Shown in pieces: positions 8,683 to 54,172 of a stretch of 64,000 nt of DNA (position 1 is its first letter; the number at the start of each line of letters is the position of its first letter). Under the pieces are notes generated by a model that saw only the letters and a program-made list of their open reading frames with translations, was not told the origin of the DNA and did no database searches. The position numbers and the translations under genes were made by a program. Source of the stretch: Candidatus Micrarchaeota archaeon (GTDB lineage: Archaea > B1Sed10-29 > JAJRYS01); contig CAZXTN010000001.1 of NCBI GenBank assembly GCA_964643685.1, forward strand, positions 118,737 through 182,736, written 5' to 3'.

Positions 8683-8810
8683 GCAGAGGTGGCAGAGTGG
8701 TAATGCGCTGGTTCACTTTCGCTCGGCGAAATGAACGACTGAACGGAGTGAGGCGAGTCTTGAAAACCAGTGTCCTCCGGGGCGCTAGGGTTCAAATCCC
8801 TACCTCTGCG
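8683..8810 (+). tRNA. tRNA-Ser (anticodon TGA) with a 46-nt intron (8713-8758) at a non-canonical position (31/32 or 32/33); class II long variable arm; T-loop TTCAAAT; CCA not encoded
   Basis: Acceptor GCAGAGG/CCTCTGC+G, anticodon stem CTGGT/ACCAG, spliced loop CTTGAAA, T-stem TAGGG/CCCTA parsed by hand. Confidence 0.7.
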
Positions 8811-9415: not shown

Positions 9416-9437
9416 GCAAACAAACTTGTTTGTTTGC
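9416..9437. other. perfect palindrome GCAAACAAAC-TT-GTTTGTTTGC (10-bp stem) in the Nudix-archease spacer
   Basis: Read directly; flanked by imperfect 22-nt direct repeat of the archease start. Confidence 0.6.
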
Positions 9438-9463
9438 GGTGTCGAATAATGAGGGATAAGGTT

Positions 9464-9877
9464 ATGTACGAATTATTCGAACACACGGCTGACATAGGCG
9501 TGCGCGGATATGGAAAAACAATTGAAGAAGCATTTGAAGAAACAGCAAAAGCAATGACATCAATACTAGTAGACCTGGACACAATCGAAGAAAAAAAGAC
9601 AATTAAAATAGAAGCAGAAGCAGACACCCCTGAAGAACTTCTATTCGAATGGCTGAATGAAATACTAGCACAAATAGACATTGAAGGGATGATATTTAAA
9701 AAATTCAAAATAACAAAACTAAAAAACAACAAGCTGGAAGCAGAGTTGACAGGCGAACAACTTTCACCTGAAAAACACCACACTAAAACGCAAGTAAAAG
9801 CAGCTACTTATTCACAGCTAAAAGTATACAAAGATGAAAACGGGCGCTGGATAAGCCAATGCATCGTAGACGTCTAA
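9464..9877 (+). CDS. archease (RtcB activator)
   Basis: N-terminus MYELFEHTADIGVRGYG typical of archease; ORF track starts at TTG 9434 but conserved start is ATG 9464. Confidence 0.85.
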   Translation: MYELFEHTADIGVRGYGKTIEEAFEETAKAMTSILVDLDTIEEKKTIKIEAEADTPEELLFEWLNEILAQIDIEGMIFKKFKITKLKNNKLEAELTGEQLSPEKHHTKTQVKAATYSQLKVYKDENGRWISQCIVDV

Positions 9878-9910
9878 AAAAAATCAAAAAAATTGGAGGT
9901 GTGCGGAAGT

Positions 9911-11344
9911 ATGGACTTAGCACAATTAAACAAAATATCAGAATACGAATGGGAAATAGAGCAAACAGGAAACATGAACGTACCTGGAAAAATATTCGCT
10001 TCACAGTCACTAGTTGAAGCAATGGGAGACAAGGTAAAAGAACAGATTCAAAACGTGGCCCAATTGCCAGGAATACAAAAAGCAGCAATGGCAATGCCAG
10101 ACGCCCACTGGGGCTACGGGTTCCCAATAGGAGGAGTAGCAGCATTTGACCCTGAAGAAGGAGGAGTCATCTGCATGGGAGGAGTTGGCTACGACATCTC
10201 ATGCGGAGTAAGGACACTTAAAACAAACATGACACTGGAGGAAATACAGCCTTACTTAGAGCCGCTAGCAGATGAATTATTTAAAACAGTACCAGCAGGG
10301 CTCGGAGTGCATGGAAAAATAAAATTAAACGTCGAGCAATTAGATGAAGTTTTAGTAAACGGAGCAGAATGGGTTATTGAAAAAGGATATGGCTTAGAAG
10401 AAGACTTGGAATACACTGAAGAAAGGGGAAAAATGGGAGGAGCAGACCCAACAAAAGTTTCATACAAAGCAAAAAAAAGACAATTTAAAGAGATAGGAAC
10501 ACTCGGCTCAGGAAACCATTACCTAGAAATACAATACGTTGATGAAATCTATGATGAAAAAATAGCAAAAATGTATGGATTGGAAAAAAACCAAATAGTA
10601 ATTTCACTGCATTGCGGTTCAAGAGCACTCGGACACCAAATAGGAGTTGATTACACAAAAACGCTGACAGAAGCAGCTGAAAAATACAAGCTAAATCTAC
10701 CAGACAAAGAATTGGCAGCAGCTCCAATCAACTCGCCAGAAGGACAAGATTACTACGCTGCAATGAAAGCAGGAGTAAACACAGCACTTGCAAACAGGCA
10801 AGTGATAGGTCACTTGGCAAGAACAGCATTTGAAAAAATAGTTCCAAACAGCGAAGTAAAAATGTTCTATGACATTTCACACAACACATGCAAAGAAGAA
10901 GAACATGTGATCGGCAACAAGAAAAAGAAATTATTCGTGCACAGGAAAGGGGCGACAAGAGCATTCGGCCCAGGCAGAAAAGAACTGCCAAAAAAATACA
11001 TGCAAGCAGGACAGCCAGTATTAATAGGCGGAACAATGGGAACATCTTCTTTCATTTTAGCTGGAACAGAAGAAGGAACTGAAAAAACATTCGGAAGCGC
11101 CTGCCACGGAGCAGGGAGAGGAATGAGCAGGAAACAAGCTAAAAAACAATTCCACGGAGAAAGCATAGTAAGCCAGTTGAAACAGCAGCAGAAGATAATA
11201 GTAAAAGCCCATTCAGCAGCAGGAGTAGCTGAAGAAGCGCCAGGAGCTTATAAGAATGTAGAGGAAGTGGTAAATTCCGTGCATTACACTGGCTTAGCTA
11301 AAAAAATAATCCGCTTAAAGCCACTAATAAACATTAAAGGATGA
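9911..11344 (+). CDS. rtcB: RNA-splicing (tRNA) ligase RtcB
   Basis: RtcB motifs (PDAHWGYG, GSGNHY, CHGAGR); GGAGGTG SD 9 nt upstream of ATG 9911; no intein. Confidence 0.9.
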   Translation: MDLAQLNKISEYEWEIEQTGNMNVPGKIFASQSLVEAMGDKVKEQIQNVAQLPGIQKAAMAMPDAHWGYGFPIGGVAAFDPEEGGVICMGGVGYDISCGVRTLKTNMTLEEIQPYLEPLADELFKTVPAGLGVHGKIKLNVEQLDEVLVNGAEWVIEKGYGLEEDLEYTEERGKMGGADPTKVSYKAKKRQFKEIGTLGSGNHYLEIQYVDEIYDEKIAKMYGLEKNQIVISLHCGSRALGHQIGVDYTKTLTEAAEKYKLNLPDKELAAAPINSPEGQDYYAAMKAGVNTALANRQVIGHLARTAFEKIVPNSEVKMFYDISHNTCKEEEHVIGNKKKKLFVHRKGATRAFGPGRKELPKKYMQAGQPVLIGGTMGTSSFILAGTEEGTEKTFGSACHGAGRGMSRKQAKKQFHGESIVSQLKQQQKIIVKAHSAAGVAEEAPGAYKNVEEVVNSVHYTGLAKKIIRLKPLINIKG

Positions 11345-27697: not shown

Positions 27698-27891
27698 GCG
27701 GTGGTCGCATAGTCCCTCGTAAAAACGAAGTTTTTTCGTTGGGTGCAATGGCTATTGCGCCAGCCTGGAAACAACCCATAAAAATACAAAAAGGTTGACT
27801 GCAAGCTGGTGTCCTCCGGGGCACGCGAGTTCAAGTTTGCGACAAGGTTCCCTCGTCGAACTTTTCGCAAGCGAAAATCTCGCCCACCGCG
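27698..27891 (+). tRNA. tRNA-Ser (anticodon GGA) with three introns: D-loop (~27714-27748), canonical 37/38 (27771-27803), T-loop 59/60 (27835-27876); CCA not encoded
   Basis: Acceptor GCGGTGG/CCACCGC+G, anticodon stem CCAGC/GCTGG with loop CTGGAA|A, variable arm TGTCCTCCGGGGCAC (near-identical to tRNA-Ser(TGA)), T-stem GCGAG/CTCGC with spliced T-loop TTCAAAT. Confidence 0.65.
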
Positions 27892-27924: not shown

Positions 27925-28045
27925 AATTGAATTACAAATAATACACTTAAAAATTCTTTTTAAAAAAAGTCGGCGAGCTCCTTAAAAGCGATGACCTACT
28001 GGAAACAAAACTAATTCAAAAAAAAATTGGAAAAAAAGATGCAAG

Positions 28046-46791: not shown

Positions 46792-47465
46792 TTGACATAC
46801 AATACGCCCTTCCATTGTTCATAGTGCTCATAAGCCTTGAAAGCAGCTCCTTGAACATGGAAGGAGCAGTGTCAGCCCTCTTAATGGCTTACTTAATCCT
46901 GCTAACCCAAAACGTCTGGTGGTTCTTTTACTTACTAGCATTTTTCATAATAGCCATGCTTGGAACAAAATATGGAGAGAAAAAAAAAGAAAAAAAGAAA
47001 CTAATACAACAAACAAGAGGATCAAAAAACGTAATGGCAAACGGAGGAATAGCTCTTCTCATGGCTTTGCTTGGAGGCCCTTATGCAGTATACGGTTTCG
47101 TCGGCGCACTTGCAGCAGCAACAGCAGACACAACAGGTTCTGAAATAGGAGTGCTTTCAAAAACAAAACCAATAATGATAACAACACTCAAACCAGCAAA
47201 ACCAGGAATAAACGGAGCAATTTCACTAAAAGGAACAATAGCAGCTGCAATTGCTTCCTTTTTAATGGGTTTAATTGCATTGACTCTTACAAGAGACTTT
47301 AACATTATATGGATAACAACAATAGCAGGCATGGCAGGAATGCTTGCAGACTCACTAATAGGAGCAGTGTTTGAAAACAAAGGATATTGGGGCAACTCAA
47401 TCACAAACATGTTCGCTACAACAACAGGAGCAACAGTAGCACTTTTATTAACAACATTAATATAA
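46788..47465 (+). CDS. DUF92/TMEM19-family integral membrane protein
   Basis: ATADTTGSEIG motif; multiple TM segments. Confidence 0.6.
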   Translation: MIDIQYALPLFIVLISLESSSLNMEGAVSALLMAYLILLTQNVWWFFYLLAFFIIAMLGTKYGEKKKEKKKLIQQTRGSKNVMANGGIALLMALLGGPYAVYGFVGALAAATADTTGSEIGVLSKTKPIMITTLKPAKPGINGAISLKGTIAAAIASFLMGLIALTLTRDFNIIWITTIAGMAGMLADSLIGAVFENKGYWGNSITNMFATTTGATVALLLTTLI

Positions 47466-47511
47466 AAAAATATAAATAAAAAACAAAACAATAAAACAAA
47501 AAATAAAAAAA

Positions 47512-47530
47512 AGTCCCGTAGTCTAGTGGC
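47512..47530 (+). repeat. upstream exact copy of tRNA-Gln 5' module (AGTCCCGTAGTCTAGTGGC)
   Basis: 19/19 identity to 47667-47685; followed by three perfect hairpins. Confidence 0.8.
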
Positions 47531-47666
47531 TGCCCCTTTCTTTTTTCGAAAAAAGAAAGTGGTAAGTGTTGCAATTAACGAAGTTAATTGAACCATCAAA
47601 CAATCTTCGATTGTTTGCATGTAGCCCAAAGAAAAAACAGGACTGAGAGAAGTATAAACCAAAAAT

Positions 47667-47920
47667 AGTCCCGTAGTCTAGTGGCCAAGGATTCTGGCCT
47701 TTGGAACGTTTCAACGCCTTCAAAAAAAGGAGTTAAGCGTGGAAACAGCCAGAGACGGCGGTTCGAAACAAAGGGTTACACCCTCTTGACACCTGTCATT
47801 GGGATGCGCTTGCGCTTACCCAATTGTCAATGATAAGGGAAGGGGGGTCAGGAGGACCCTGAAACTGGGGGGGAAACCGCAGGTGTCCCCCGCGGTTCGG
47901 CGAAACTCCGCCCGGGACTA
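47667..47920 (+). tRNA. tRNA-Gln (anticodon TTG) with two introns: canonical 37/38 (47705-47746, 42 nt) and T-loop 59/60 (47768-47906, 139 nt, GC-rich)
   Basis: Acceptor AGTCCCG/CGGGACT+A, D-stem GTCT/GGAT, anticodon stem CTGGC/GCCAG loop CTTTGGA, T-stem GGCGG/CCGCC with spliced T-loop TTCGAAT. Confidence 0.65.
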
Positions 47921-48038
47921 TAACCCATCACTTATTATAAAATCACTAACAGATTTACAAAAAGACCACTAAGCGAAGCGCATGTGGTCTGCGGGGAGAT
48001 CAGAAACTCCCTAGAAATGAGAGGGGCAGCAAGCCCCT

Positions 48039-48068
48039 CGCGTTTCGGAGAAACTCCGCCCGGGACTA
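48039..48068 (+). repeat. downstream near-exact copy of tRNA-Gln 3' module (CGCGTTTCGGAGAAACTCCGCCCGGGACTA)
   Basis: Last 20 nt identical to 47901-47920; 28/30 identical overall with 47891-47920. Confidence 0.8.
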
Positions 48069-48096
48069 CTTAAAAATTCTTTTTTTTGCAAGAAGG

Positions 48097-48837
48097 TTAG
48101 AAGCTAGCTGTTGCTAGTCTCATTCCATTTTCATTAATGTCAATCAAATACTTGGACATTGGAAATCTTGTTGCTATCATTTTTCTAATCATGAGAGTTT
48201 GGTTTAAAGAATCTTGCCCAGGGTTGAAAAACAAGTCAATCACTCCATCAAGTACAAAAGGCTCAACTCCATACTCAGTTAAACCACCTGAAATGCTAGA
48301 AGAACCAGCTGTAGAAGTTTGCCTCTCAGCAACAAACAAAGTAGTACATCCTTTTTCTTTCAAAGAACGTGAAAGGTAATAAAGAAGAGTTCTGAATTTT
48401 GACTTGTTATTAATAGCCTGTGCAAGAGGAGAAAGAGAATCAAAAACAATTCTCTTAGCGCCTATTTCATTAATAACTTTGTTAAGCTGAAGGATAATTT
48501 CAGAATGAAGAGAACGTAATTCAAACTTGTCAAACTCCACAGGGTCATAAGAAGAAAAAATTAACTTGTTCTGCTTCTGTAAACTAACAATATCCCAATT
48601 AAACCTTTCAGCATACCATTGAAAATCTTTTTCATAAGCTTCTACGCTAATCATAAACCCAGGTTCATCGTATAATTTAACGCCGTTGTACAAGTACTGT
48701 AAACTAAAAATAGACTTGCCTACACCAGGAGGACCTGTTAACAAAATAGAAGAAGGACGTGGAAAACCTCCTTCAATCAAGCTATCTAAACCAGGAATGC
48801 CTGTTTTAACCCTATCCATAGCACACTCACAACCCAA
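48097..48837 (-). CDS. RecA-superfamily ATPase, KaiC-like single-domain
   Basis: Walker A TGPPGVGKS, GIPGLDSLIEGGFP N-terminus. Confidence 0.75.
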   Translation of the reverse strand: MGCECAMDRVKTGIPGLDSLIEGGFPRPSSILLTGPPGVGKSIFSLQYLYNGVKLYDEPGFMISVEAYEKDFQWYAERFNWDIVSLQKQNKLIFSSYDPVEFDKFELRSLHSEIILQLNKVINEIGAKRIVFDSLSPLAQAINNKSKFRTLLYYLSRSLKEKGCTTLFVAERQTSTAGSSSISGGLTEYGVEPFVLDGVIDLFFNPGQDSLNQTLMIRKMIATRFPMSKYLIDINENGMRLATASF

Positions 48838-50576: not shown

Positions 50577-51577
50577 TTTTTACCCCTCGCTTCTTTTTTT
50601 TCCATAAGCCACAGCACAAGAACAGCGTTAGTGAACCAAGTTGCTATGATGTCAGCAAGCAAGCCAATAACCATCATAAGAGAGATGTCAAAAAGAACTG
50701 AAATGCTTGCATAGTAAGAGACAATAAGCAAGCTAAGCATTGTGAAAAAAGCAGTTAAAGTCATTGTAAGCCCTGTTTTCAAAGCACCGTTAAGACGCTC
50801 GTATTTTGTGCCTGATTTTCTTTTAATCATTCTGTCATTAAGCATGATGTCCGTGTCAATTGAATAACCAATGAGCATAAGTAAAGGGGCAAAAGTTGCA
50901 AGAGTTAATGGAATGTGAAAAGCCCCTAGAACTGCATAGCCAACTAAAACGTCAAAAAAAGCAGACTGCACAGCTGCAAAAGACAAGACAAAAGTCCTGA
51001 AGTAATAGAAAATTAAAATTGTTATGAAAACAAAAGCTAGGATGATTGCTGTTGTCGCTTGCTTTAAGAAGAAGTCACCAAGAGAAGGGCCGATATCTTG
51101 TATGGAAAGCTGTGAAGATTCAACTTGAAGTTCTGAAGAAAGGAAGGAAATCAGTTTGTCTTTGAATTCTTGTCTTGCTTTTGAAAAGTAAGCATCAGCT
51201 TGATCTTTCAATGGAAGGTTAGACACTCCAAGATCACCTACAGTTGGCTTAAGAAGGGAAATAACTTGCTCATATTTCTGGTTCTTAAAGTAATTCTGAG
51301 CTTTTAAAAGAGTTTTTTCACCTAAAAATTCAATGTAAACACTTTTAGTAGCGCCAGTAACCTGCCTAACTGACAAGTCCTCTAAATCAAAATTTGATTC
51401 AAGTTTGCTTTGAAATTCCTGGACATTTATATCCTTGTTAACAGGAGATACTATTGAAGTCCCTCCTTTCAAATCAATTCCATACTCAACTTGCGTTGAA
51501 AAATAAAGAGACAAGATAAGAATTAAAATTGGGACTATTAGCAATAATTTATAATGCTTAGATGAGTAAATCTTCAT
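50573..51577 (-). CDS. secF: protein-export membrane protein SecF
   Basis: SecF family, GIDLKGGT motif. Confidence 0.8.
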   Translation of the reverse strand: MKIYSSKHYKLLLIVPILILILSLYFSTQVEYGIDLKGGTSIVSPVNKDINVQEFQSKLESNFDLEDLSVRQVTGATKSVYIEFLGEKTLLKAQNYFKNQKYEQVISLLKPTVGDLGVSNLPLKDQADAYFSKARQEFKDKLISFLSSELQVESSQLSIQDIGPSLGDFFLKQATTAIILAFVFITILIFYYFRTFVLSFAAVQSAFFDVLVGYAVLGAFHIPLTLATFAPLLMLIGYSIDTDIMLNDRMIKRKSGTKYERLNGALKTGLTMTLTAFFTMLSLLIVSYYASISVLFDISLMMVIGLLADIIATWFTNAVLVLWLMEKKEARGKK

Positions 51578-51579
51578 TG

Positions 51580-52329
51580 ATGAACACCTTGTTAATTGAT
51601 AGAAAAGGCAAAAAAACCTTAATAAGCACTGAGGAAAGAAAAGCCAACACTCAGTATGGAATAATTAGTGAAACAGACCTTAATAAACTTAATGGTGGGC
51701 TTGTGAAAACGCATACAGGCAAGCAACTGCTTGCAGTGAAACCAAGCTTTCAGGACATGGTTGAAAGCATGAAAATGGGCTCGCGTCCAATATACCCTTA
51801 TGACTCGGGAATAATGTCAGCAATGCTTTCAATTAAAAAAGGAACAAAGGTTCTTGAATCAGGCACAGGAAGCGGAGGAAATACAATTTACTTAGCTGAA
51901 CTTGGAGCAGAGATAGACACGTGGGAAAAAGAAAAAAGGTTCTATGACATAGCTGAAAAAAACCTGGCAAAGTACAAGAATGTGAAAACACATTACGGAA
52001 ACGTGTTGGAACAGAAATTAAAGAGAGAATTTTACGACGTGATTTTTCTGGACTTGCAGAATCCTTCTCAGGCAATTGAGCAAATTGATTACTCTTTAAG
52101 GATAGGTGGTTTTGTGGGTGTTTATTCTCCTATCATGGATGACATCAAGCCGGTTTGGAGGAAACTAGAGGAAAGAGGTTACTTTGACATCAGGGCAATT
52201 CAGTTGGATTTGAAGGAAGTAATTGTTAAAAAGTATGCTCGTGTAAAAGGATTACTAGGATACCCTGGCTGGTTTATCTGGGGTAGGAAAGGAAGTGAGT
52301 TAAAAAATGATGAGTTTGGAAGAAATTGA
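51580..52329 (+). CDS. trmI: SAM-dependent tRNA (adenine-N1) methyltransferase, TrmI/Gcd14-like
   Basis: SAM motif VLESGTGSGGNT; ORF track start 51562 would overlap secF start codon on opposite strand. Confidence 0.55.
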   Translation: MNTLLIDRKGKKTLISTEERKANTQYGIISETDLNKLNGGLVKTHTGKQLLAVKPSFQDMVESMKMGSRPIYPYDSGIMSAMLSIKKGTKVLESGTGSGGNTIYLAELGAEIDTWEKEKRFYDIAEKNLAKYKNVKTHYGNVLEQKLKREFYDVIFLDLQNPSQAIEQIDYSLRIGGFVGVYSPIMDDIKPVWRKLEERGYFDIRAIQLDLKEVIVKKYARVKGLLGYPGWFIWGRKGSELKNDEFGRN

Positions 52330-52468: not shown

Positions 52469-54172
52469 TCATTCTTTTTTCTTGTTTTTCCATCTTGGCT
52501 TTACAGCAACTCCTTTTTCAAAGTCAAGCATTTCTTTCTTGTTAAGAAGAGCTTCGCCTGACGCAAGCAATTCTCCCTCCTCGTTTATGACTAGAACTTC
52601 TTGTCCTGGGATAATTGAATCATCAGCATCTAAGACATGCTTTGCAAACACGCTTCTGCCCTCTCTTATAAACTCGCTTGCCTCATTTTTTACCTTGACT
52701 CTGAATTGCATTCCGCTGGTTTTCTCAAACAACAACTCAGCTCCAAAGTGGAGGAGTATTTTGAAGTCAGTTGCCCTGAAAGTAGTTAAGAGCTTGCCGT
52801 TTTTGTTAACTTCCCTTATTTTATGTGTTTTTGGCGACACCCTTATCTTGCAATCCTCGTCAAAGATATTCACTCCAAACCAGTATAATGAAACATCTTT
52901 TATTTTTTCATAATTGTTTTTTGTCTTAGGGTACTTGGAATCACCTGTAACTGAATGTGAAAAGGGATAGCATTCAAGCAGAGTTTTCGGAACCCTGCCA
53001 AATAATTCATGCATGTAATAATCTTTTGATGGCACGCGTGCTAGCATTTTTTCAACTCTTTCAATCAAAGGTTGTTTTGTGGAGAATTCTGTTGATACAA
53101 AGAAATGGCTTTTTGTCAGCTTGTCTTTCTTTGCCAAGTATCTCAAGTTAGCTTGGCTTGTGAATGCTTTCATTGCCTTGTATAATTCTGGATGAGCAGC
53201 TGCTCTTTGTTCTATTAATTCAAACAAACTTCCTTGCTTGATGTTTTCTTTGATCAAATTTATTTCATTGAAAGTAACGTAAAGGTTGTGTTCAGCTAAG
53301 TCTTTGAAAGTCAAGTCGCTTGGTTTTTTTCCAACGCAAGCTGGGCAAGAGCATGGAAGGTGTGTCATTTCATCCAAGTGAAGGGTTCCTGTTGGCGTCA
53401 AGTACCTCTTGTCTTTTGCGTAGAGGATGTAAGCTGCTGAGTCAAACAAGTCAATTCCCATTGCAACTGCGAATGCGAAGAACATTGGATGCCCTGCTCC
53501 GAACAAGTGCACTGGCCTGTTTTCAGGAAGGTTTTCTTTTGCGTTGCGCATGATGTCAATTAATTCAGCGAATTTGTATTTTACGAGAAGAGGAACAACA
53601 GAACCTATTGGGTGAATGTCAAAGTTCAATTCACTCATTGCTCTGCTTGTTTTCACAACCAAGTCAGAATGAACCCCTCCTTGAATCGGCCCGCACCACA
53701 ACCTCTCTTTATCAATTAATTCCTGAGCTTCTTTCGCCCTTTGAATTGTTTCTTCGACGTTTTTTTCAATTGCTTTCTTGTAGCTTGTTTTTGAAGGAAT
53801 GTCAAGGATTACCCCTATGTCTACTCCTATTTTTTTCTGAAAGTCAATTATCTGCTCGTTTGAAACGTCAATGTCCCCGTATTCCATTAATTGGAAAGCT
53901 CCTGAGTCAGTCATAATAGGGCCTGTGTATTGCAGAAAGTTGTGCACTCCTTGTGCCAGGACTTCTTCTTGATGATTTTTCCATAAAATGTATGAGTTTG
54001 TAATCACTGCTTGTGCTCCGAATTTCTGCATTTCGCTTGCTTTAATTACTTGCTGGTTGGGGTTGATTACTGGAAAAATCGTAGGCGTCTCTATGTTACC
54101 GTGTGGCGTTTTCAAAACACCTATTCTGCCTCCTAAGTCTCTTGCTTTGATTTCAAATTCAACCATTTTCAA
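52469..54172 (-). CDS. tgtA: archaeosine tRNA-guanine transglycosylase (arcTGT) with C-terminal PUA domain
   Basis: TGT catalytic barrel, zinc site CSCPAC, 567 aa. Confidence 0.8.
   Translation of the reverse strand: MKMVEFEIKARDLGGRIGVLKTPHGNIETPTIFPVINPNQQVIKASEMQKFGAQAVITNSYILWKNHQEEVLAQGVHNFLQYTGPIMTDSGAFQLMEYGDIDVSNEQIIDFQKKIGVDIGVILDIPSKTSYKKAIEKNVEETIQRAKEAQELIDKERLWCGPIQGGVHSDLVVKTSRAMSELNFDIHPIGSVVPLLVKYKFAELIDIMRNAKENLPENRPVHLFGAGHPMFFAFAVAMGIDLFDSAAYILYAKDKRYLTPTGTLHLDEMTHLPCSCPACVGKKPSDLTFKDLAEHNLYVTFNEINLIKENIKQGSLFELIEQRAAAHPELYKAMKAFTSQANLRYLAKKDKLTKSHFFVSTEFSTKQPLIERVEKMLARVPSKDYYMHELFGRVPKTLLECYPFSHSVTGDSKYPKTKNNYEKIKDVSLYWFGVNIFDEDCKIRVSPKTHKIREVNKNGKLLTTFRATDFKILLHFGAELLFEKTSGMQFRVKVKNEASEFIREGRSVFAKHVLDADDSIIPGQEVLVINEEGELLASGEALLNKKEMLDFEKGVAVKPRWKNKKKE

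Follow-up and report, generated by a model that had tools for sequence, protein, structure and literature searches.

Candidate protein-spliced introns at T-loop position 59/60 of tRNA-Gln and tRNA-Ser(GGA) genes in a Candidatus Micrarchaeota archaeon

Introduction

The stretch of DNA analysed here (the window; 64,000 nucleotides of a contig from Candidatus Micrarchaeota archaeon) appears at first to lack tRNA genes, as neither ARAGORN at its default settings nor Rfam at the gathering score reports one in the raw 64-kb sequence. Three tRNA genes are nonetheless present, all of them interrupted, and ARAGORN recognises each once it is fully spliced. Two of the three, tRNA-Gln(UUG) and tRNA-Ser(GGA), carry an insertion within the T-loop between positions 59 and 60, of 139 nt and 42 nt, respectively. 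The locus thus raises the question of whether these insertions are introns removed by the archaeal splicing machinery, and if so, why the same position is interrupted in two different tRNAs. From the splice-site geometry and the comparison with relatives, the two insertions are very probably genuine archaeal tRNA introns at 59/60, spliced by proteins.

Results and Discussion

Interrupted tRNA-Gln(UUG) and tRNA-Ser(GGA) genes

The tRNA-Gln(UUG) gene (47667..47920, + strand, as are all of the segments that follow) is composed of three exons and two introns, as read from ARAGORN analysis of the spliced sequence and from its orthologue in a relative (records L090 and L091; loci fetched from other assemblies are given by L numbers). 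Exon 1 (positions 1-37; 47667..47704) is followed by a 42-nt intron at the canonical 37/38 site (47705..47746), placed both by the intron mode of ARAGORN and by direct reading of the sequence, then by exon 2 (positions 38-59; 47747..47767), the 139-nt intron at 59/60 (47768..47906) and exon 3 (positions 60-73; 47907..47920). When 47768-47906 is deleted ARAGORN calls a tRNA-Gln(ttg) with the T-arm GGCGG/TTCGAAT/CCGCC and the 42-nt intron at 37/38, and when the T-loop insertion is retained it calls no tRNA. The original prediction, made from the letters of the window, had placed the intron at exactly these coordinates with the same TTCGAAT loop, and had described it as strongly G+C-rich; its G+C content is 57.6%, against 36% for the window, and is close to the 60% of the Gln exons. 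The intron folds into two domains (z-score -2.2). An alternative gene model that takes a second copy of GCGGTTCG, which lies within the intron, as the T-arm was rejected, as it leaves a 12-nt loop and is contradicted by the intronless orthologue.

The tRNA-Ser(GGA) gene (27698..27891, + strand) lies directly upstream of the rpS13 operon and has four exons and three introns: one of 36 nt in the D-loop at 15/16 (27713..27748), one of 33 nt at 37/38 (27771..27803), which has a homologue in L092, and the 42-nt T-loop intron at 59/60 (27836..27877). ARAGORN accepts the gene after all three are deleted and rejects it if the T-loop insert is kept, such that in both genes a canonical cloverleaf and 7-nt T-loop are regained upon removal of the inserts. 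The junction of the T-loop intron is set by L092, and homologous introns are present in L051 and L093. A T-loop intron of this length at 59/60 had been foreseen and stands, but its coordinates had been given as 27835-27876 and the restored loop as TTCAAAT, which would correspond to an intron at 58/59; the register of the splice motif and the L092 sequence both correct these to 27836-27877 and TTCAAGT. At the D-loop site the motif is GCAT(AG^T) / GTGC(AA^T), where parentheses enclose the bulges and ^ marks the cut, and the junction is confirmed by L051, L092 and L094, which are without this intron and read GCATAG^TGGC.

A splice motif built on the T-arm

Archaeal introns at 37/38 provide a template for the expected geometry, in which each strand runs from an outer helix through a 4-bp central helix and a 3-nt bulge into the other outer helix, the two bulges lying on opposite strands and each being cut behind its second base. 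The T-arm, with its 5-bp stem and 7-nt loop, shares the geometry of the anticodon arm, so that 59/60 corresponds to 37/38. In tRNA-Gln the T-loop bases 54-57 (TTCG; 47762..47765, + strand) correspond to the 5′ strand of the central helix, and are followed by A58, A59 and, across the cut, an A; the 3′ strand is the intron sequence CGAA (47901..47904, + strand), followed by A, C and, across the cut, U60. The arrangement TTCG(AA^A) / CGAA(AC^T) is thus exact, with four of four central pairs and the 5-bp T-stem as outer helix h. Intron bases -6 to -3 are the precise complement of T-loop bases 54-57 at the position that such a motif requires, and the same arrangement is found again in a sister species. 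A fold constrained to the cloverleaf and the motif has an energy of -100.0 kcal/mol compared with -105.1 kcal/mol for the unconstrained minimum, a cost of about 5 kcal/mol. The tRNA-Ser(GGA) site reads TTCA(AG^T) / CGAA(AA^T), with three of four central pairs, the 5-bp T-stem as h, and an inner helix h′ of 6 bp (TTGCGA/TCGCAA) inside the intron. All five 59/60 introns identified in the tRNA-Gln and tRNA-Ser genes of the window and its relatives end in CGAAA(A/C) immediately before U60. The sequence TTCGAA is self-reverse-complementary, so that an intron whose end resembles the loop, ending in CGAA, pairs automatically with TTCG.

We propose that in the precursor the T-stem (49-53/61-65) would form normally, and that T-loop bases 54-57 would pair with the CGAA located 3–6 nt before the 3′ end of the intron. 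This would create a 4-bp helix between two 3-nt bulges, one composed of positions 58 and 59 and the first intron base, and the other of U60 and the two bases that end the intron. The resulting motif would be a bulge-helix-bulge (BHB) of the relaxed hBH form with the T-stem as outer helix, which the splicing endonuclease would cut after the second base in each bulge. The exons would then be joined by RtcB together with archease, and the intron would probably be circularised. Recurrence at this site may be a product of both the T-arm geometry and the copying of CGAA-ended introns between T-loops.

Several observations weigh against this interpretation. The inner helix h′ of the tRNA-Gln motif is only 1 bp, and in tRNA-Ser(GGA) the central helix has an A57.C mismatch and h′ is offset from it by one base, so that both motifs are relaxed, the strict hBHBh′ form requiring both outer helices, and would need a permissive enzyme. 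No gene for a splicing endonuclease was detected in the 30 open reading frames (ORFs) of the window scanned against Pfam. In addition, the 139-nt intron is present in a single assembly, and in other samples the contigs of this species stop short of it. We infer that both introns are cleaved, and that the source organism has a broad-specificity endonuclease.

The original prediction had also argued that the shared junction in two unrelated tRNAs is not due to chance and reflects a lineage-specific preference of the splicing endonuclease. The first part is borne out by the CGAA complementarity at the BHB register and its repetition in the sister species. No special preference has to be invoked, as the geometry of the arm, the status of 59/60 as a known hot spot and the spread of an intron family are together sufficient.

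Presence and absence of the introns among relatives

Relatives of the tRNA-Gln locus were reached by synteny through S15-S3Ae-DUF92, and those of tRNA-Ser(GGA) through rpS13. The tRNA-Gln genes of L090 and L091, where DUF92 is 92% identical at the amino acid level and 82% at the nucleotide level, are intronless, and their exons match the predicted spliced product at 72 of 73 bases at the same locus. The sister species L003 (DUF92 identity 86–87%) has no anticodon intron and has a 45-nt intron at 59/60 ending CGAAAA^T, and tRNA-Gln of L084 (75%) is intronless. The 37/38 intron of the window gene, which has a relaxed central helix with three of four pairs and a 6-bp h′ helix, is missing from L003, L084 and L090. 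For tRNA-Ser(GGA), the sister species L051 (S13 identity 84%) has a homologous 45-nt intron at 59/60 and is without the D-loop intron, and L093 (77%) also contains a homologous 59/60 intron. There is no T-loop intron in L092 (86%), in which the T-arm is uninterrupted as GCGAG TTCAAGT CTCGC, nor in L094 (64%), a metagenome-assembled genome (MAG) of the Micrarchaeota, nor in more distant tRNA-Ser(GGA) loci (40–47%).

Alignment to orthologous tRNAs, which had been proposed as a check of the introns, thus yields the predicted junctions directly from intronless relatives: the exon junction predicted for tRNA-Gln is seen in L090 and L091 (GGCGGTTCGAATCCGCC) and that predicted for tRNA-Ser(GGA) in L092 (GCGAGTTCAAGTCTCGC). 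On this comparison the introns are real, are limited to a genus-level clade, and have evidently been gained or lost between species.

The intronless tRNA-Gln of L090 and L091 (GCA_027076045.1) has the anticodon loop CCTTGGA in both records, with C33 rather than U33; U33 is near-universal in tRNA. Three assemblies of a 90% relative (L087, L088 and L089) all end at the same base within the 5′ end of tRNA-Gln (...AATAGTCCCGTAG), which suggests that in that species, too, the tRNA-Gln locus contains a repeat or is heterogeneous in the population.

An intron family and a long intron

The 45-nt tRNA-Gln intron of the sister species aligns with the tRNA-Ser(GGA) 59/60 introns with a z-score of 5.0, a score reached by none of 1000 shuffles, and a z-score of 3.1 remains once the constrained 3′ end is trimmed off. 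A single intron was probably copied from the T-loop of one of these tRNAs into that of the other, which would account for part of the recurrence at 59/60. The A57.C mismatch in tRNA-Ser(GGA) would be consistent with an intron whose end evolved opposite a loop with G57.

The 139-nt tRNA-Gln intron has no significant similarity to this Gln/Ser family, nor was a match found to it in the 86 fetched loci or the rest of the window by BLAST, or in viral contigs by a pattern scan of IMG/VR. Archaeal tRNA introns ranged from 11 to 129 nt in a 2014 review (PMC4090602). The DPANN loci retrieved here include canonical introns as long as 149 nt (L041) and 320 nt (L038), and 139 nt is therefore long, particularly for the T-loop site, but is not unique.

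These longer introns belong to a set of archaeal tRNA-Gln genes (L038, L041, L026 and L021) with the same 18-nt 5′ end as the window gene. That of a Micrarchaeota MAG (L038, 6739-7131) has its 320-nt intron at 37/38, with internal repeats, and that of a Nanohaloarchaea MAG has its 149-nt intron at the same site. In a Nitrososphaeraceae MAG, ~45 nt of intron lie at the border of T-stem and loop, and one further archaeal tRNA-Gln has a short D-loop intron.

Repeats and hairpins at the tRNA-Gln locus

Partial copies of the gene flank tRNA-Gln on both sides. Upstream, a 30-nt segment (D2; 47501..47530, + strand) repeats the leader and the first 19 nt of tRNA-Gln and is 90% identical to 47656-47685. 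Downstream, a 34-nt segment (D1; 48035..48068, + strand) duplicates the 3′ exon in full together with the final 20 nt of the 139-nt intron, and is 91% identical to 47887-47920. Near-perfect hairpin arrays lie between these repeats and the gene, with fold z-scores of -6.1 on the 5′ side and -4.3 on the 3′ side. On the 5′ side (47501-47625) three near-perfect hairpins follow the gene fragment, the first of which is a 32-nt palindrome, CCCCTTTCTTTTTTCGAAAAAAGAAAGTGG, containing a T-run, and on the 3′ side there are three G+C-rich hairpins at 47963-48046 with no Rfam match. At E<=10, Rfam reports only chance-level fragments of GP_knot1, snoRNAs and miRNAs over 47440-48110, all far below the gathering scores. 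The first T-run downstream of the gene is at 48080-48087, after the 3′ partial copy, and the precursor probably runs to this point, in which case it would hold two possible 3′ splice sites. The outer site pairs at three of four positions (AGAA), and use of either would give an identical mature tRNA.

The 5′ fragment and first hairpin are also present in L001 and L002 (the same species in two other samples), and are 89% conserved in L085 and L086, the most distant relative compared (DUF92 identity 73%), and missing from the closer relatives L003, L084 and L090. The upstream flank that is homologous to the relatives (CCCAAAGAAAAAAC) adjoins the inner 5′ end, whereas it is next to the outer 3′ copy that the trailer of the relatives' type (CTT...) and the sole T-run are found. 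GCGGTTCG occurs twice, at the exon end (47758-47765) and near the intron end (47892-47899). There is a 16-nt complementarity between 48015-48030 and 47529-47544, the latter directly after the upstream 5′ fragment.

Three candidate explanations of this arrangement were rejected. That the spacer at 47921-48034 is a diverged paralogue of the intron is not supported, as outside the 34-nt repeat the two align no better than shuffled sequence (z 0.8). For a further tRNA-Gln(CUG), nested or split and assembled from the outer fragments, neither an anticodon arm nor the 5′ half of a T-arm was found in the spacers, and there is no BHB register at the fragment ends. A split or tri-split tRNA likewise finds no 3-4-3 BHB register at the ends of the 16-nt complementarity, and the fragments are without positions 20-59.

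Alternative explanations

If the interrupted genes were pseudogenes inactivated by insertion, with functional copies elsewhere, it would be understandable that standard tRNA finders miss all three, and that degenerate gene fragments surround tRNA-Gln. The exons are intact, though, the Gln exons being nearly identical to the intronless orthologue and the Ser T-arm being the same as that of L092, and every insertion is in a BHB-compatible register. The Ser intron is moreover kept in three species with its internal stem paired despite differing sequence, and synteny is conserved around both genes, with tRNA-Ser(GGA) upstream of rpS13 and tRNA-Gln downstream of S15-S3Ae-DUF92, all of which makes inactivation highly improbable. 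That the 139-nt insertion is an assembly chimera created from the local repeats is brought to mind by several independent contigs, from this and related species, that break inside or just before tRNA-Gln. We regard it as very improbable nevertheless, because the repeat copies have diverged (90–91% identity) and are hence not collapsed reads, the insertion has an exact BHB complement in the required register, and the junction of the 5′ fragment recurs in two other samples. The content of the intron invites a further explanation, namely that it houses a box C/D guide RNA, as does the tRNA-Trp intron of Euryarchaeota, in which nested small RNAs (sRNAs) are known (PMC4090602). The CTGA and TGATAAG elements that had suggested a partial C/D-box sRNA are present, with CTGA at 47859 and ATGATAA, one mismatch from RUGAUGA, at 47830, but they are both internal and just 22 nt apart. 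No C′/D′ pair accompanies them, the bases flanking the boxes appear from the sequence to be unable to make a terminal stem, and the best guide-target match against the three tRNAs is 9 bp with G.U pairs allowed, which is at the level of shuffled sequence (96 of 300 shuffled 14-mers reach at least 8 bp). A guide would be expected to span some 10–12 nt upstream of D or D′ and to complement a tRNA or rRNA. The scan with C/D models that had been suggested matches no curated C/D family in Rfam at E<=10 and the box scan is also negative, such that a guide RNA in this intron is hardly to be expected.

A different origin, one compatible with splicing, is that one or more mobile elements entered tRNA-Gln by way of attachment sites derived from tRNA, and that the 139-nt intron and the partial copies are their footprints. 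The transcript would then hold two alternative 3′ exons, and the gene would be a snapshot of the birth of an intron. Direct repeats of gene parts (30 nt and 34 nt) flanking short structured inserts speak for this, as do the ancestral flank at the inner 5′ end together with an ancestral-looking trailer and T-run at the outer 3′ copy, the occurrence of GCGGTTCG at both the exon end and near the intron end, and the variation of intron content between species whose copies of the adjacent gene are 82% identical. The 5′ fragment and hairpin are found in the 73% relative and not in closer ones, a patchiness typical of mobile DNA, and there is a comparable case in Caldiarchaeum, where a 5′ fragment of tRNA-Thr lies beside an inserted recombinase element (PMC3293823). 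On the other hand the inserts are only 114–125 nt long with no integrase or any other ORF between the repeats, and the intron and the downstream spacer are dissimilar outside the 34-nt repeat. No further copy of an insert was found in the window, in IMG/VR or in the fetched loci outside the DUF92-tRNA-Gln locus. When the intron and spacers were compared by BLAST with the 86 fetched loci and the rest of the window, the 5′ hairpin alone was recovered, in the same species and in L085/L086, and scans of IMG/VR for five exact patterns (two hairpins, the core of the intron and the two repeat junctions) gave no match. Integration or duplication footprints are the simplest reading of the tRNA-Gln locus, one we hold only tentatively and offer as a hypothesis because no recombinase and no second insert copy were found. 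A more specific and rather unlikely version is that the locus represents intron birth and turnover in progress, with small mobile or duplicated DNA as the cause. An insertion of 287 nt at 59/60 (47768-48054) may then have brought its own 3′ half of a BHB together with a 3′ exon, creating a precursor with two competing 3′ splice sites; the excised G+C-rich circle of 139 nt (or 287 nt) may persist as a structured RNA, and the upstream 5′ fragment, hairpin and T-run may be the displaced original start of the gene.

Genomic context

The window has 36% G+C and encodes archaeal information-processing proteins, including ribosomal proteins, EF-1alpha, EF-2, RNA polymerase, PolD, SecDF and ArcTGT. The best named homologues of its DUF92 and S13 proteins are from 'Candidatus Micrarchaeota archaeon' (56–64% identity), and a search of 185,579 species genomes places the 18-nt 5′ end of tRNA-Gln only in archaeal MAGs, almost all of them labelled DPANN. 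Two adjacent genes for the exon-joining step are present, archease (9434-9877, + strand; Pfam PF01951, E=1e-45) and the tRNA-splicing ligase RtcB (9893-11344, + strand; Pfam PF01139, E=8e-168).

Genes for tRNA processing are clustered in the window, comprising archease, RtcB, a GCD14/Trm61-like methyltransferase and ArcTGT. The last two are just downstream of the tRNA-Gln locus (51562-52329 and 52469-54172, respectively), and the GCD14/Trm61-like protein is by Pfam family the enzyme for m1A58 in the T-loop, an assignment taken from its orthologues. A gene for a KaiC-like protein is also situated downstream of tRNA-Gln.

The third tRNA gene, tRNA-Ser(UGA) (8683..8810, + strand), is located after EF-1alpha/S10 and has a single 46-nt intron at 30/31 (8712-8757) of the HBh′ type, with an intact T-loop. 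The intron register, as read from the sequence, has a central helix CGCT/GGCG with an inner helix of 7 bp and an outer one of 1 bp; ARAGORN places the intron one base off.

Between tRNA-Ser(GGA) and rpS13 there is a leader motif, GGCGA-GCNN...NNGC-RNTGACCT (27971-27998), that is also conserved in L051, L092, L093 and L094. Its small stem has compensatory changes across species (GCTC/GAGC, GCTT/AAGC and GCCC/GGGC), and the motif may be a ribosomal-protein operon leader. Over positions 1-40000 the + strand of the window is ~49% A and 14–17% T (AT skew 0.5–0.6), nearly all genes are on this strand, and the proteins are very lysine-rich.

Relationship to known systems

The 59/60 position is a listed hot spot for non-canonical archaeal introns (PMC4090602), and the closest parallel is in ARMAN-2 (Candidatus Micrarchaeum acidiphilum), where 56% of tRNA genes are disrupted and a 13-nt hBH intron at 59/60 of tRNA-Cys is cut in vitro by a three-unit, broad-specificity epsilon2 endonuclease (Fujishima et al. 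2011, PMC3239211). As in the ARMAN-2 pre-tRNA-Cys(GCA), the introns described here have a relaxed hBH motif at 59/60 with the T-stem as outer helix (PMC3239211), in a Micrarchaeota-like DPANN lineage with many multiply interrupted tRNA genes. They differ in being 42 nt and 139 nt long and in residing in tRNA-Ser and tRNA-Gln, and their cleavage is a predicted one. The BHB geometry is an established one, the position is a recognised hot spot and the lineage is known for it, which places both introns in a known class.

Several features recall the Thermoproteales, for which the accounts summarised in two reviews describe transposition of tRNA introns between tRNAs (Sugahara 2008, Fujishima 2010, reviewed in PMC4090602, PMC4033280). 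As in those accounts, genes have up to three introns at D-loop, anticodon and T-loop sites, related introns occur in different tRNAs, and gain and loss is fast between close species. The present organism is of another phylum and has an AT-rich small genome, and by comparison with the Thermoproteales as there summarised, the evidence for an intron family consists here of one significant Gln-Ser similarity and not of a genome-wide survey.

The 139-nt intron is long and structured, like the box C/D intron of tRNA-Trp(CCA) in Haloferax and other Euryarchaeota, but the latter interrupts 37/38 and bears a full set of C, D, C′ and D′ boxes with guides for C34 and U39, none of which is present here. 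The tRNA-Thr(GGU) locus of Caldiarchaeum subterraneum shares with tRNA-Gln a partial 5′ tRNA copy upstream of an intact intron-bearing gene and an intron content that varies between close genomes, whereas its insert is 1.8 kb long and encodes a recombinase, in place of the gene-free hairpin arrays of 114–125 nt and the 3′ partial copy seen here (Sugahara et al. 2012, PMC3293823).

Implications

The understanding of archaeal tRNA splicing is unchanged by these introns, and their novelty is modest, lying in new host tRNAs for 59/60, an unusually long G+C-rich T-loop intron, a clear presence/absence series in close relatives, and the gene-fragment repeats at the tRNA-Gln locus. The 59/60 T-loop class is widened to tRNA-Gln and tRNA-Ser, and to a length of 139 nt. 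The presence/absence series of one intron among relatives sets the splice junctions without RNA data, and on the same comparisons the tRNA-Gln locus is one that changes quickly between close relatives. Its flanking fragments are a possible natural test case for the creation of tRNA introns by mobile elements. The interruptions also explain why standard finders report no tRNA in the 64-kb window, and interrupted genes missed in this way bear on estimates of genome completeness and on claims of 'missing tRNAs' for DPANN genomes.

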